The notes below the pieces were generated by a model. It ran no database searches and was not told the origin of the DNA. It was given only the letters and a program-made list of their open reading frames with translations. From assembly GCA_021791545.1 (NCBI GenBank), contig JAJYWL010000003.1:1-51389 (forward strand): 51,389 nucleotides of DNA. The letters are read 5' to 3'. Source of the DNA: a bacterium. GTDB lineage: Bacteria; Patescibacteriota; Microgenomatia; Levybacterales; UBA12049. Every line of letters begins with the position of its first letter. The first letter of the stretch is position 1. The position numbers and the translations under genes were made by a program. Below are positions 5 to 26,620 of this stretch, piece by piece.

Positions 5-880
5 TTAAGAGTTTTTTCTGTAGAAAACAAAACCTGTTGTGGTTAGTGCTACCACTCCGAGGAATTGGAATAACTGAAGAGCAACATTTTCATTTCCTCC
101 TGTTGCGGAAAGTCCTAAAACAGATGTTGAAGCGCCTAATACAGCTTGAGTGTGTGGAGGCTGAGTGCACTCAGGGCAAGAAGAAAGTCCATCTGATCTT
201 CCGTCTCCGCCTGTGCTAGTTCCTTGAACACTTTGTGTAGGCGTAGGCGTAGGGGTTGCAGTAGGTGTCTCTGTAGGCGTTGGTTCTCCAGTTGGTGTGA
301 CTGTTGGAGTAACGGTTGGAGTTACGGTAGGTGTTGGTGTTGGTGTGACGGTCGGTGTAACCGTAGGTGTAACAGTAGGGGTAACAGTAGGTGTAGGTGT
401 TGGTGTAACACTTGGAGTCACTGTCGGCGTAGGTGTGCAGGTAGGAGTAGGTGTAGGAGTAGGGCTAACAGAAGGACAGTCAACCCAGAAAGTTTTATGT
501 TTTACTTCTGTTTGTTCATCATTGTTTTGATCTTCCCAGTCAAGTTTATAATGTCCATTACTTAAGTTGTAAACTATGCTTTGCCAATTTCCATTATTGT
601 CTGCCGTATATGGTGTTTTTGCAACTATTATTGGGTCAGAAGAGTAGGTGGGGGTCCATCCCTCAATCCAATAATTGTGGCTTTGTCCTGGATCAAAGTT
701 GGTACCGGATATATAGAAAGAACAAACGTGTGGATCATTATCGTTTCCACTCTGGTAGTTGTCATTTGCATTTATTTTTACGTCACCATTATTGCTATCT
801 GCAAAAACATTGAAAACCGACAGTAAGAAGATTACTGTTACTAGGACTCCAAGCGATAGGACTCTGAAATATTTATTCAT
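5..880 (-). CDS. secreted surface protein with signal peptide, small N-terminal domain, PT/VT-repeat linker, Cys-containing C-terminal cassette, LSATG sortase-like motif, TM helix and basic tail
   Basis: 291-aa ORF. The N-terminus MNKYFRVLSLGVLVTVIFLLSVFNVFA is signal-peptide-like. Residues 136-216 are almost pure (T/V)PT repeats. The C-terminus reads ...LSATGG, 12 aa, LGVVALTTTGFVFY, RKNS, which is the tripartite layout of sortase substrates. Confidence 0.75.
   Translation of the reverse strand: MNKYFRVLSLGVLVTVIFLLSVFNVFADSNNGDVKINANDNYQSGNDNDPHVCSFYISGTNFDPGQSHNYWIEGWTPTYSSDPIIVAKTPYTADNNGNWQSIVYNLSNGHYKLDWEDQNNDEQTEVKHKTFWVDCPSVSPTPTPTPTCTPTPTVTPSVTPTPTPTVTPTVTPTVTPTVTPTPTPTVTPTVTPTVTPTGEPTPTETPTATPTPTPTQSVQGTSTGGDGRSDGLSSCPECTQPPHTQAVLGASTSVLGLSATGGNENVALQLFQFLGVVALTTTGFVFYRKNS
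233..475 (-). repeat. in-frame low-complexity tandem repeat encoding the (T/V)PT linker
   Basis: The plus strand shows reiterated ggtgt(a/t)ac(a/g)gt(a/c)gg units. Translation on the minus strand gives PTPTPTVTPTVTPTVTPTVTPTPTPTVTPTVTPTVTPT. Confidence 0.85.
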
Positions 881-22917: not shown

Positions 22918-24780
22918 ATGGAAAACGTGAGCCCAGAAAACCAATTACTTAAAAATAAATATGTTTTACATAAACAACCTGAAGTAGATGTTGCCGCAAG
23001 AAGAACACTTGCTCACACAGACGAGAAAGTTCCTCAAGATCCATTAGCTCGTATTCAAAATTATTTAGATAGGTTTCACGAAATTACAGACAGAACTGAC
23101 CCAAGAGACAGAGAGCATGGATTAGATGCAGCCAAAAGACTGTTATACCGAAAATATATCATAAAACCAGATGAGATCCCCGAAGGATATTTTGATAATC
23201 AGCGCCGCCTAGCAAGAGAATTAGGACATGGTGATATTGAGATAACTCCTCAAGCAAGAGAACAACTGACTGAAGTAATTATTGCAGATCAAAAATCAAG
23301 TTTGGATCTATGGGTTGATTACCTCTCATCTTCTGATGCTCCATATTCAGACGGACTTAAGTATTACACTCTACGAAGTGTTCTTTCAATGGGTTCTTAT
23401 GATAAAGAAAAAGGGAAATTCAGCGAAAGAGCAAAAGGAACAGTTAAGCCGTTTCCTGATTTAAATAGAGAAGCCTTAGCTTACGTCCTTGACGCACTAA
23501 GTAAGAAATATAAGGGGTATGATGTTGATTTATCAAAGATTGAGGAAACAGATAGGCCTCAATTTGAAAAACTGCTAGCTTCTGAAAACTTCCCAAAACT
23601 TTACGCTTGGGCGATTGATAAAGTTACCCCCGCAACTGCCGAAGAGTTGTCTGCAACAAATGGTAAATGGGTAAAATACGACCAAAATTCTGATCATATG
23701 CCACTTGTAAAGAGCTTGGAAGGCCACGGAACAGGTTGGTGTACAGCAGGAGAATCAACAGCAGAGGCTCAACTTCAAGGCGGAGACTTCTATGTATATT
23801 ATTCAATGGATAAAGCTGGAGAACCAACTGTACCAAGAATTGCAATTAGAATGCAGGAGGACAGGATTGCAGAAGTAAGAGGAATTGCACCAAATCAAAA
23901 CCTTGATGCAGGAGTTGAGCAAATTGTCGAAGATAAACTAAAGGAATTTCCAGATGGTGAGCTTTACAAGAAAAGGGTGGCTGATATGAAAACACTTACT
24001 GATATTGAAAATAAAGTAAGTGAAGGAGGCAATCTAACTTCCCAGGAGTTACGATTTCTCTATGAAATAGATTCATCAATTGAAGGTTTTGGTTATCAAA
24101 GAGATCCCCGTATTGAAGAACTTCGAAGTGGTAGAAATACAGACCAAGATATGTTAACAATTTTTGATTGTGAACCTTCAGAAATTGCCCACAATACAAA
24201 TCAAATCAATGAAAGTACTAAAGCCTATGTGGGTCCGCTTGAAGCAGGTATATTTACTACCCTGCAAAGATACGGTATTGAACATATTTACACAAAATTC
24301 CCAGAAGGAAGAATAAAATTTGATTCTGTAGCTGTAGGAGGTAAGGATTTAAATCAACTGCAAAGAGAGTTAAGTGAAAACAAAATTAATATTTCTTCCT
24401 ACGCTGAATATATGATGAGAACTGGTCTAAGTCTAACCGCAGGACAGAGTCAAAATCTTGATATAGTACGGTTAAAAGTTGGTGATTTAGGACTACCTGA
24501 CGACTATCCTACAACAGACAAAATATTTAAAAGAGCAAAAGAGCTTGGTCTAGAACTTTGTCCGGCAGACCTTGGACCAAATTACAGACTTCAATATAAA
24601 GATCAACCTATGGATGACTGGTTTTATGTTGGTATGAAGCCAATCGCCGACTCGGATGGCGATCCCTATGTCTTCCTGCTTTCTCGCAGTGTTGGCGGGT
24701 TGTGGTTGAGCTACCGTTGGGCTGTTCCAGACGACGAGTGGAATCCGGAGTACGAGTTTGTTTTCTCCCTTCGCAAGTAA
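22918..24780 (+). CDS. DGR variable (target) protein: 620 aa, no signal peptide, unrecognised N-terminal ~570 aa, C-terminal variable region
   Basis: The C-terminal 46 codons align with the TR and differ almost only at TR adenines. The TR-encoded peptide ...NNNWANPDNKWNPKNEFVFSLRK resembles the Asn-rich ...NPDNR..N.GFR ends of C-type-lectin-fold DGR targets (recollection). Confidence 0.85.
   Translation: MENVSPENQLLKNKYVLHKQPEVDVAARRTLAHTDEKVPQDPLARIQNYLDRFHEITDRTDPRDREHGLDAAKRLLYRKYIIKPDEIPEGYFDNQRRLARELGHGDIEITPQAREQLTEVIIADQKSSLDLWVDYLSSSDAPYSDGLKYYTLRSVLSMGSYDKEKGKFSERAKGTVKPFPDLNREALAYVLDALSKKYKGYDVDLSKIEETDRPQFEKLLASENFPKLYAWAIDKVTPATAEELSATNGKWVKYDQNSDHMPLVKSLEGHGTGWCTAGESTAEAQLQGGDFYVYYSMDKAGEPTVPRIAIRMQEDRIAEVRGIAPNQNLDAGVEQIVEDKLKEFPDGELYKKRVADMKTLTDIENKVSEGGNLTSQELRFLYEIDSSIEGFGYQRDPRIEELRSGRNTDQDMLTIFDCEPSEIAHNTNQINESTKAYVGPLEAGIFTTLQRYGIEHIYTKFPEGRIKFDSVAVGGKDLNQLQRELSENKINISSYAEYMMRTGLSLTAGQSQNLDIVRLKVGDLGLPDDYPTTDKIFKRAKELGLELCPADLGPNYRLQYKDQPMDDWFYVGMKPIADSDGDPYVFLLSRSVGGLWLSYRWAVPDDEWNPEYEFVFSLRK
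24641..24780 (+). repeat. DGR variable region (VR), including an IMH-like 3' end
   Basis: It aligns colinearly with 25102-25241 (offset 461). Codon-by-codon comparison shows 23 TR-A to VR-N substitutions plus one T-to-C (VR 24768) near the 3' end, where IMH and IMH* are expected to differ. Confidence 0.9.
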
Positions 24781-25052
24781 TTGAAATTTAATTTCTTTGT
24801 CACTTCGTTTTTTTTGAGTCTTTGTTTCTTTGATACTTTGATTTTTTCGTCCAGAAATTTTTGATATACTTTTTACAGATTGGTTTAATTGAACGGTTAC
24901 GGCTTTTCAAAACCTCTCCGGCATAAATATATTGAGAATGTAAGTTACTACGGTTTCTTACAGAGGATATATTTATTGTTTCTAAAAAAAGATAAACTTG
25001 GTGTTACGTGCTGGTTGATTTTATATCACAAATAAAATACAGCTTATTTTCT

Positions 25053-25101: not shown

Positions 25102-25241
25102 CGAAAACCGACTCGAATGGCAATCCAAATGTCTTCAAGCTTAATCGCAATGATGACGGGTTGTGGTTGAACAACAATTGGGCTAATCCAGACAACAAGT
25201 GGAATCCGAAGAACGAGTTTGTTTTCTCTCTTCGAAAGAAG
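25102..25241 (+). repeat. DGR template repeat (TR)
   Basis: Adenine-rich (AAC/AAT/AAG codons) invariant copy of the VR. The ORF-track entry 25089-25292 is just the open frame inherited from the VR. The 5' boundary is uncertain by a few nt. Confidence 0.9.
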
Positions 25242-25248
25242 GTCTTTT

Positions 25249-25278
25249 CCACACTTTCAATAGGTGTGGTTTTTCTTT
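25249..25278 (+). terminator. intrinsic-terminator-like hairpin immediately 3' of the TR
   Basis: CCACAC-tttcaatag-GTGTGG followed by TTTTTCTTT on the plus strand. The avd stop codon (25257-25259) lies in the loop. Confidence 0.5.
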
Positions 25279-25580
25279 ATTGGATTATCTAAGCTTTTCT
25301 TCCAACCCCAAAGCATTTTACCGATTTCATCAAGCCTTGTAGCTATCTCCTCGTATTGTTTATGAGAAATGAGTTTGCCTTCCCACGCTACAGAAACAAA
25401 ATATTTAAGAATATCTAATTTAGAAATACATTCAGATAGCTTGTGTGATTTCTGCTCTTTTTCGCTAAAATATGTAGTGTATGAAAGTTCTAAGAGATCA
25501 AGGAATATATTCTCAATCCTTATGCCGATTGCGTAGCGTGAAGATTTTGGAATATGCGGCAAGATATTAAGCCATATCAA
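25257..25580 (-). CDS. avd: DGR accessory variability determinant (Avd, four-helix-bundle protein); N-terminally truncated as called, and probably extends to the ATG at 25654 through a frameshift in the (TC)9 tract
   Basis: LPHIPKSSRYAIGIRIENIFLDLLEL...LISHKQYEEIATRLDEIGKMLWGW matches the Avd/TIGR02436-like pattern. The called start is a TTG only 10 aa before the IPK motif, whereas Bordetella bAvd has about 35 aa there. The frame stays open upstream to 25655 but contains no start codon. Confidence 0.75.
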   Translation of the reverse strand: MIWLNILPHIPKSSRYAIGIRIENIFLDLLELSYTTYFSEKEQKSHKLSECISKLDILKYFVSVAWEGKLISHKQYEEIATRLDEIGKMLWGWKKSLDNPIKKNHTY

Positions 25581-25619
25581 ATATCCCTCTTTGATACGAC
25601 AGAGGATTGTAGGATTTTC

Positions 25620-25638
25620 GAGAGAGAGAGAGAGAGAG
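25620..25638. repeat. (GA)9G dinucleotide microsatellite in the avd 5' region and the avd-RT divergent intergenic region
   Basis: gagagagagagagagagag read directly. On the minus strand this is (TC)n encoding SLSLSL. Confidence 0.95.
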
Positions 25639-25678
25639 TAGAAGGTCGTGTCATATTAAATATAATGATATCATCTCT

Positions 25679-26620
25679 TTGGAAAATCTGCTTATCTCCT
25701 GGCAAGAATTCCTAAAAGGCAAAAGAAAACGTAAAGACGTTTTGGAATTTTCTGTCAGATTCATGGACAATATTCTTAAACTCAAAAATGAATTAAAGGG
25801 CAAGCAGTATAGACATGGAACATATTATGCTTTTAAAATTAATGATCCAAAACCCCGTGATATTCATAAAGCAAAAGTTAGAGATAGAATTGTTCATCAC
25901 GCAATCTACAGATTATTATATCCCTACTTTGATAAAAAATTCGTTTATGATTCATATTCGTGCAGGGTTACTAAGGGAACTCACAGGGCAATTAATCGCT
26001 TTAGAACTTTAAGTAGAAAGGTATCTAAAAATGACACAAAAACTGTTTGGATTTTAAAATGCGACATTAGAAAATTCTTCGCCAACATAAACCATGAAGT
26101 TCTAAAAAACATTCTAAGAAAACACATTATTGACGATGAAATTATGTGGCTTTTGGAAAATGTCATTGACAGTTTTTATACTAGAGATTATTTAAACATC
26201 GGGTTGCCGTTAGGTAACGTTACAAGTCAGATATTTATTAATATCTACATGAATGAGCTTGATCAATTCGTTAAAAGAGAATTAAAAGTTAAATATTTTA
26301 TTCGCTATGCTGACGATTTCGTGATCTTAAATACTGATAAGAAATACCTAGCTAATCTTATTCCCAAAGTATCTGAATTTCTAGAAGAAGAGCTAAAACT
26401 TTCTCTTAATCCGAAAAAAGTTTCAATTACAACGCTTTCATCCGGTGTTGATTTTTTAGGCTGGGTAAATTTTCCTCATCATAGGGTTTTAAGAACTACT
26501 GCAAAGCGAAGGATGTTTAAGAAATTGAAGATAAATCAATCAAAAGAAACAATGGCTTCATATATAGGACTTTTGAAGCATGGGAATACTTATAAGCTTA
26601 TGAAATTAATTCAGGATTAG
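25679..26620 (+). CDS. DGR-type reverse transcriptase
   Basis: 313 aa. RT motif 4 LPLGNVTSQIFINIYMNELD (the DGR-typical I/LGxxxSQ) and catalytic YADD (IRYADDFVIL). It has a TTG start, and no ATG is in frame upstream (stop at 25610-25612). Confidence 0.9.
   Translation: MENLLISWQEFLKGKRKRKDVLEFSVRFMDNILKLKNELKGKQYRHGTYYAFKINDPKPRDIHKAKVRDRIVHHAIYRLLYPYFDKKFVYDSYSCRVTKGTHRAINRFRTLSRKVSKNDTKTVWILKCDIRKFFANINHEVLKNILRKHIIDDEIMWLLENVIDSFYTRDYLNIGLPLGNVTSQIFINIYMNELDQFVKRELKVKYFIRYADDFVILNTDKKYLANLIPKVSEFLEEELKLSLNPKKVSITTLSSGVDFLGWVNFPHHRVLRTTAKRRMFKKLKINQSKETMASYIGLLKHGNTYKLMKLIQD

Follow-up and report, generated by a model that had tools for sequence, protein, structure and literature searches.

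The DNA analysed here is contig JAJYWL010000003.1, positions 1 to 51,389 of the forward strand, from assembly GCA_021791545.1 of a bacterium of the Patescibacteriota (Microgenomatia, Levybacterales, UBA12049); this whole stretch, with a GC content of ~35%, is hereafter called the window. It carries a diversity-generating retroelement (DGR) with a short dinucleotide repeat near the 5′ end of its accessory gene avd, and this repeat, a candidate genetic switch, is the subject of the present work. The element is composed of a target open reading frame (ORF) of 620 aa (22918-24780, plus strand) that ends in the variable repeat (VR, 24647-24777, plus strand), the template repeat (TR, 25108-25238, plus strand), the avd gene on the opposite strand, whose body spans positions 25257-25619, and the reverse transcriptase (RT) reading frame (25613-26620, plus strand). 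VR and TR differ at 23 positions, 22 of which are TR adenines (A to G 10, A to C 5, A to T 7), and on the basis of these 22 adenine differences the element has been active in the past. The adenine-biased TR/VR pair at the 3′ end of the target gene, the RT beside the TR and the four-helix bundle of Avd identify the locus as a DGR. Its arrangement, TR-(avd)-RT, is the one named B3, which accounts for 90% of the DGRs in the candidate phyla radiation (CPR) (PMC5758913).

At the protein level, Avd matched the Pfam family bAvd (PF22296) with 64.9 bits (cut-off 40) and the NCBIfam model NF033474 with 68.4 bits, under the cut-off of 80 of that model. RT matched RVT_1 with 91.6 bits (cut-off 29.6); in NCBIfam the nearest model was a group II intron RT, with a score below its cut-off, no model specific for DGR RTs being among those used. 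The 620-aa target protein had no match among the Pfam and NCBIfam families. Targets of CPR DGRs have been reported to lack recognisable domains, and the target in the window agrees with this. The Rfam scan of the window found one tRNA only, and no match at the DGR locus.

The repeat is a pure GA alternation of 19 nt at positions 25620-25638, reported by Tandem Repeats Finder as (GA)9.5 on the plus strand; the minus strand accordingly reads (TC)9.5. No other dinucleotide repeat in the window reaches six units, and no comparable repeat arose in 100 dinucleotide-preserving shuffles of the window. On the minus strand, from 25660 to 25577, the sequence reads ...TTTAAT ATG ACA CGA CCT TCT A(CT)9C GAA AAT CCT ACA ATC CTC TGT CGT ATC AAA GAG GGA TAT TTG ATA TGG... 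An earlier reading of this DNA from its letters alone (the sequence-only reading) had described the Avd frame as open from 25655 down to its stop, without an ATG, GTG or TTG before position 25580, and both statements hold: the frame is open from 25655 to the stop codon at 25259-25257, and no canonical start precedes the TTG at 25580-25578. The conserved avd start codon, an ATG at 25654-25652 (minus strand) placed 16 nt upstream of the tract, opens instead an abortive ORF of 25 codons (25577-25654, minus strand), which reads MTRPSTLSLSLSKILQSSVVSKRDI and stops at 25579-25577. This ATG is 74 nt from the TTG, that is, it is offset by 2 from the frame of the Avd body, as that reading had also reported. 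The fusion that it had predicted upon loss of one repeat unit was reproduced in silico, with the removal of one GA unit giving an Avd of 131 aa, MTRPSTLSLSLENPTILCRIKEGY... More generally, with in silico tracts of 17 or 23 nt, Avd would be 131 or 133 aa long and RT 354 or 356 aa, while with tracts of 15, 19 or 21 nt both proteins would be cut off at 25-53 codons. The tract encodes (LS)n in the Avd tail and, on the other strand, (RE)n in an extension of RT, and at its present length of 19 nt both genes are out of phase.

The AlphaFold model of Avd had a predicted local distance difference test (pLDDT) score of 84, and its best match in the PDB was Bordetella Avd (4dwl), with a target-normalised template modelling (TM) score of 0.87 and a root-mean-square deviation of 1.4 Å over 108 columns. 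The bAvd structure was reached by fold search, whereas the comparison of the Avd alignment profile with PDB sequences returned spurious designed coiled coils only. In the 131-aa model, residues 1-11 (MTRPSTLSLSL) had pLDDT below 50 and helix 1 spanned residues 16-33; therefore, the repeat appears to encode a disordered tail that is free to vary in length. The sequence-only reading had expected the product of the TTG to lack helix 1. This stood in part: the 107-aa product would lose the first 9 of the 18 residues of the predicted helix and retain the other half.

The TTG at 25578-25580 (minus strand) is the first canonical in-frame start of Avd and is preceded at 5 nt by AAGAGGGA, similar to a Shine-Dalgarno (SD) sequence (whole span 25578-25593, minus strand). 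It is probably not the functional avd start, because the residues that precede it (SIL.RIKEGY) show amino acid conservation, with free synonymous variation at Arg19 of Avd, where all six arginine codons are in use across homologues. Among the 461 homologues of Avd, almost all from metagenome-assembled genomes of Patescibacteria, most begin with M-x-x-P-x-x-LSLSL-x-N-A-S-I-L-x-R-I-K-E-G-Y, so that the tract-encoded peptide recurs, and some are 107 aa long or extended at the N-terminus in unusual ways. In the homologues starting with MTRPST-LSLSL-ENASIL, the ATG upstream of the tract is in frame. When Avd is counted from this ATG, the IPK/IPR motif falls at the same residue number as in bAvd, ~34-36. 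The codon choice near AAGAGGGA-N5-TTG is almost fixed across loci (GAG 90%, GGA 78%, TTG 96%), which may reflect an internal start of a shortened Avd or be a by-product of an antisense extension of RT (Q-I-S-L-F-D). A non-canonical ATC/ATT start just past the tract was considered and rejected, as the Ile/Val codons there are not fixed as one codon.

Orthologous DGRs were compared for the presence and the length of the tract using DNA from 80 species-representative genomes, in which 75 loci had enough upstream sequence to be measured. A simple repeat was found at the homologous site in 70 of these 75 Patescibacteria loci, with lengths from 8 to 49 nt across species. In most loci the motif was (CT)n of 10-43 nt; 13 loci had either poly-C (8-12 nt) or a C-run combined with (CT)n, and one had (CA)24. 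Of the 70 loci with a repeat, all except two had an ATG 12-25 nt upstream of it, and the SIL.RIKEGY codons began ~12 nt downstream of the repeat. Over the ~420 kb covered by the loci, 73 such tracts were located at the avd/RT site versus 3 elsewhere.

With respect to the Avd body, the ATG was in phase 0, 1 and 2 in 18, 25 and 27 of the 70 loci, a distribution not different from random (chi-square p = 0.38). The avd body, from the anchor codon to the stop, was intact in 74/74 loci, with a length of 109-178 codons and a median of 116. Conversely, all five loci lacking the repeat were in phase (p = 0.004). When tract length was taken into account, 9 loci with no tract or a tract of at most 13 nt were in phase and 3 out of phase, versus 11 in phase and 39 out of phase among those with tracts of at least 14 nt (Fisher p = 0.001). 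These comparisons indicate that the site keeps its repetitiveness and not the sequence of the repeat, that phase is randomised only where the tract can slip, and that the genes are not decaying. As read from the sequences, this is the pattern that comparisons classically show for a contingency locus.

Some individual loci presented further particularities. The (CA)24 replaces (CT)n in L067, and the C-run is joined with (CT)n in L017, L034 and L049. In L066, compared with L064, a base change makes a new in-frame ATG adjoining the poly-C tract. The tracts away from the avd/RT site were two further (GA)8 repeats in L070, ~1.4 and ~1.9 kb downstream of the avd anchor, and one C8 run in L072, with no others in the ~420 kb.

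Tract length also varied among close relatives. One related strain, the L090 strain, was recovered in 10 assemblies from different samples (JGI, ENA, Logan), with tracts of 25 nt in six of them, 27 nt in two and 21 nt in the remaining two. The left flanks (105-340 nt) and the right flanks (734-763 nt) were identical but for 0-2 mismatches, and the tract is the sole variable site in ~1.1 kb of this strain. Among relatives of the window at 81-86% nucleotide identity, the tracts measured 16 or 19 nt in some and 9 nt (interrupted) or 17 nt in others, the last two lengths being in phase; in L001, at 76% nucleotide identity, the tract measured 15 nt. Among proteins, the 90%-identity cluster that contains the Avd of the window included both 129-aa and 107-aa forms, and a second Avd cluster included 134/135-aa, 107-aa and other forms. 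A scan of metagenomes with degenerate flanks of the window and L090 strains returned one contig, already known, and no extra alleles; the exact look-up on contigs of the 107-aa Avd of the window returned no record. Overall, the locus combines a pure repeat in the 5′ coding region with a frame that depends on the length of the repeat, and length polymorphism is present in the related strain.

The sequence-only reading had placed the tract in a divergent avd-RT promoter region. This was not borne out: there is no intergenic region, and the RT frame runs through the tract, antisense to avd. Indeed, the RT frame was open through the tract in 75/75 loci (in the window, from 25613). The N-terminus of RT (H-I-Y-D/N-D/N-I-I-S-x-ENLL) is conserved, and no conserved canonical start follows the tract: an ATG was present after it on the RT strand in ~10 loci, and an ATG, GTG or TTG just ahead of ENLL in ~17. 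In the window, the only canonical in-frame start of RT past the tract is the TTG at 25679, and the conserved N-terminus HIKYNDIISLENLL begins before it. An RT start at the ATG of M-RPRH, between the tract and the avd ATG, was rejected as a general start, being present in only ~10/75 loci.

On the RT strand ahead of the tract, one frame is aligned codon for codon with Avd in antisense; it was open for at least 22 codons in 75/75 loci, and in 75/75 loci it was open with an ATG formed by the reverse complement of the Avd His33 codon. This histidine codon was CAT in 72/72 loci, versus 48 CAT and 32 CAC at the other histidine codons of avd (Fisher 5e-11). The Leu and Ser codons that would place a stop on the antisense strand (TTA, CTA, TCA) were absent between the tract and His33 (0/265), versus 246/1088 (22.6%) in the rest of avd (Fisher 1e-26). 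Coherently, the normalised synonymous codon entropy was 0.49 in the overlap and 0.82 elsewhere in avd (p = 9e-5). The phase of RT relative to the His33 antisense ATG was equal to the avd phase in 70/72 loci. Judging from this codon conservation and from the stop-free overlap, RT most likely starts at the ATG at 25554-25556 (plus strand), the complement of the His33 CAT, 37-52 codons upstream of ENLL, and would be 354 aa long from this codon with a 17-nt tract. In the window, the 19-nt tract puts this N-terminal extension out of frame, as a 53-codon ORF (25554-25715, plus strand) that in phase would run on into RT. The 5′ ends of avd and RT thus most likely overlap in antisense by roughly 100 nt, with the repeat inside both ORFs, and the tract, lying within this 5′-5′ overlap, therefore probably gates RT too.

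We consider it probable that the length of the repeat switches the DGR on and off by slipped-strand phase variation, acting on both avd and RT. The ON/OFF switch had been proposed for avd in the sequence-only reading, and it gained support from the repeat in 70/75 loci, the random phase with intact gene bodies, the in-phase state of the loci lacking the repeat and the polymorphism among the 10 assemblies. In the proposed mechanism, avd would start at the ATG at 25654 (minus strand) and RT at the ATG at 25554 (plus strand), and replication slippage would alter the tract by steps of 2 nt. Only tract lengths equal to 2 modulo 3 (17, 23, ... nt) would set both starts in frame with the gene bodies, and with any other length both proteins would be truncated after 25-53 codons. 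The 19-nt allele of the window would thus be an OFF allele, one unit from ON. At the population level, mutagenic retrohoming would be silent in most cells, keeping the VR fixed, and in the minority that slips into phase Avd and RT would be made and the target protein diversified. For the organism of the window, we infer that the tract switches, that both proteins are expressed from in-phase alleles and that OFF alleles abolish retrohoming.

Random phase across species, the lack of in-phase enrichment and the intact gene bodies of out-of-phase loci would also be expected if the phase of the DNA were irrelevant, that is, if the RNA polymerase or the ribosome slipped on the repeat, producing some in-frame Avd (and RT) at any tract length, and the repeat merely lowered expression. 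This explanation is rather unlikely: the loci without a repeat (5/5), and those with no tract or a short one taken together (9/12), favour the in-phase state, which suggests that phase matters where slippage is impossible. In addition, some out-of-phase tracts are too short for efficient slippage (e.g., C8-C9, (CT)5-6), slippage at the DNA level was directly observed in the strain with 10 assemblies, and it is on homopolymer runs, and not on dinucleotide tracts, that transcription is known to slip efficiently. A dedicated site of programmed ribosomal frameshift or transcriptional slippage is ruled out by the variable offset (0, 1 and 2 in 18, 25 and 27 loci) and by the unconserved motif and length. 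The tract could also serve as a nucleic acid on the RT strand, as a polypurine ribosome-binding or spacer element of RT or of the DGR RNA, with its instability a tolerated side effect and with Avd and RT using non-canonical starts. The tract is indeed purine-only on that strand in 69/70 loci, as (GA)n or G-runs, and few loci have a canonical RT start just past it. However, one locus carries (CA)24, seen as (TG)n from the RT strand, (GA)n is expected to pair poorly with the anti-SD sequence, and neither gene has a conserved start downstream of the tract. Moreover, translation through the tract is indicated by the unvarying antisense ATG and by the lack of stops in the overlap ahead of it, the amino acid conservation of Avd starts right after the tract, and the ATG ahead is in frame whenever the tract is absent. 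Such a role is thus distinctly unlikely.

An error of assembly or sequencing is very unlikely. Dinucleotide runs can be miscalled, and a 2-nt error would by itself account for the window, where the true tract would have 8 units and both genes would be intact; but out-of-phase tracts were found at this single site in 52 of the 70 independent assemblies, with gene bodies free of frameshifts, and the same 19 nt were found independently in L082 and L083. The contig names, mostly of MEGAHIT or SPAdes type, suggest short-read assemblies, in which tracts of 15-40 nt would fall within single reads. It is even more improbable that the DGR is decaying, with avd (and RT) turned into pseudogenes by the frameshift. 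As a pseudogene might, both genes of the window lack a canonical in-frame start where one would be expected, but the repeat is the only lesion: the 107 avd codons and 313 RT codons downstream are intact, the avd body is intact in all the out-of-phase homologues as well, and the 22 adenine-specific VR/TR differences indicate that the element has been active.

Several observations weigh against slipped-strand switching of both genes, or against parts of it. The in-phase loci are not enriched (24-26%), with no sign of selection for ON at the consensus level. The strain with 10 assemblies yielded OFF alleles only (21, 25 and 27 nt), in a recovery that was selected for the 107-aa product. The exact look-up in a protein collection of nine predicted ON-allele proteins, from the window and L090 strains, found none of them, which is weak evidence, as gene callers may choose other starts. 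L082 and L083, from two data sets, share the 19-nt tract of the window; they are its nearest relatives with the same flanks, at ~84% nucleotide identity to it, and have the same sequence as one another around the tract. An internal SD sequence and a TTG start of avd could account for part of the synonymous constraint on GAG-GGA-TAT-TTG. Regarding RT, the proposed start at 25554 is drawn from selection signatures, not from protein data, and its SD-like AGGA is only 2 nt from the ATG. Furthermore, a second RT-strand frame upstream of the repeat contains a TTG in 67/75 loci, and in 58/75 it stays open over 15 codons or more. Therefore, RT may not be strictly co-gated and is perhaps translatable in two of the three phases, which would make a three-state switch possible.

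Some further signals were noted around the locus. A conserved perfect palindrome, ATGATATCAT (25665-25674, both strands), is located between the avd ATG and the RT body, within the RT codons N-D-I-I and 11 nt upstream of the avd ATG; it is kept in most homologous loci and includes a −10-like TATCAT on both strands. Speculatively, it might act as a −10-like element for a near-leaderless avd transcript. The consensus scan for promoters and terminators found 5 promoter-like sites versus 4.4 expected from shuffles, with no excess, and we make no promoter claim because such sites are no commoner than in shuffles. A minus-strand TTGATA-18-CATATT, over the TTG and the His33 codons, was considered as the cause of their conservation and rejected, as it leaves the absence of antisense stops unexplained. 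Directly after the TR, and overlapping the avd stop, there is a terminator-like hairpin, CCACACTTTCAATAGGTGTGG, followed by a T-run (25249-25279, plus strand). A functional hairpin here would end the TR RNA ahead of RT, which would then require a promoter of its own within the antisense avd. Between the stop of the target gene and the TR, a T-rich imperfect repeat, TTTCTTTG, with a unit of 16-17 nt (24792-24847, plus strand), stands just upstream of the promoter-like site at 24904-24933. Far from the DGR, imperfect tandem repeats, GTTGGTGTAACT..., with a period of 12/24/36 nt (289-470, plus strand), are probably a repetitive coding segment.

Classical SSR contingency loci include Neisseria opa, with (CTCTT)n in the region coding for the leader peptide, Haemophilus lic1, with (CAAT)n, the type III mod genes and the poly-G tracts of Campylobacter. 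The locus described here resembles them in that a pure repeat closely follows the start codon, where the protein tolerates changes in length. As in those loci, slippage would shift the frame, phase is random among strains, the gene body is intact and tract length is the sole difference between otherwise identical sequences. It differs from them in that its tract would gate a targeted-hypermutation machinery and not a surface antigen or a methyltransferase, and in that its host belongs to an uncultivated lineage of Patescibacteria and is not a host-adapted pathogen. A further difference is the position of the tract within two antisense-overlapping ORFs, both of which it appears to gate. The (TA)n tract of hifA/hifB in Haemophilus influenzae is similar in that a single dinucleotide tract sets the state of two divergent genes. 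That tract alters the −10/−35 spacing of overlapping promoters and so exerts a transcriptional control, whereas the tract of the window lies inside both coding frames, with no intergenic region, and would act on translation. The mechanism itself would be standard SSR translational phase variation; what differs is the function that is gated, the host group and the presence of one tract in two antisense ORFs.

Among DGRs, the element shares gene order, orientation, host group, the Avd, RT and TR/VR components and adenine mutagenesis with the CPR DGRs of B3 architecture (Wu et al. 2018, PMC5758913) and of clade 2 (Roux et al. 2021, PMC8144416). With the DGR of the Bordetella phage BPP-1 it shares the Avd fold (4dwl), but in BPP-1 avd, TR and brt lie on one strand, with neither a repeat nor an antisense overlap (PMC5758913), whereas in the window avd is on the opposite strand, overlaps RT in antisense and contains the repeat. 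The sequence-only reading was aware of no described repeat-mediated phase switch on a DGR component. In agreement with this, full-text literature searches found no paper tying DGRs to repeat-mediated phase variation, and term searches in DGR surveys (including PMC5758913 and PMC8144416) found no avd repeat, frameshifted avd or 5′-5′ antisense overlap of avd and RT; the CPR DGR survey of Paul et al. 2017 was outside the coverage of these searches.

Extended to the wider group, the same observations suggest, with about even chances of being right, that throughout the Patescibacteria-specific DGR clade avd and RT are 5′-5′ antisense ORFs sharing a hypermutable repeat. One slippage would toggle both essential proteins, or choose among three states should the second RT-strand TTG serve as a start. 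The outcome would be a master switch, stochastic, reversible and inherited, that puts a targeted hypermutator under phase variation, in short a "mutator of a mutator". The activity of the CPR-restricted DGR clade 2 is below average (PMC8144416), which fits a mostly-OFF state, and such a master switch, if confirmed, could explain the low DGR activity of the Patescibacteria-specific clade at the population level. According to a 2024 study, the signals and regulatory mechanisms of mutagenic retrohoming still await discovery, and bursts of mutagenesis between quiescent periods are expected (bioRxiv 10.1101/2024.11.15.621889). A stochastic repeat switch would be a concrete mechanism for these bursts and this quiescence, testable by sequence alone. 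The state of a DGR would also be readable from metagenomes, by counting repeat units per read and linking them to VR haplotypes through long reads. Patescibacteria/CPR are the bacterial group richest in DGRs, and many of their avd and RT genes would be mis-annotated, with the 107-aa "four helix bundle protein" and the RTs with wrong starts being phase-OFF alleles. The locus would represent a rare case of functional antisense-overlapping genes with one shared contingency repeat, and it would extend contingency loci beyond pathogens, to free-living or episymbiotic ultra-small bacteria.

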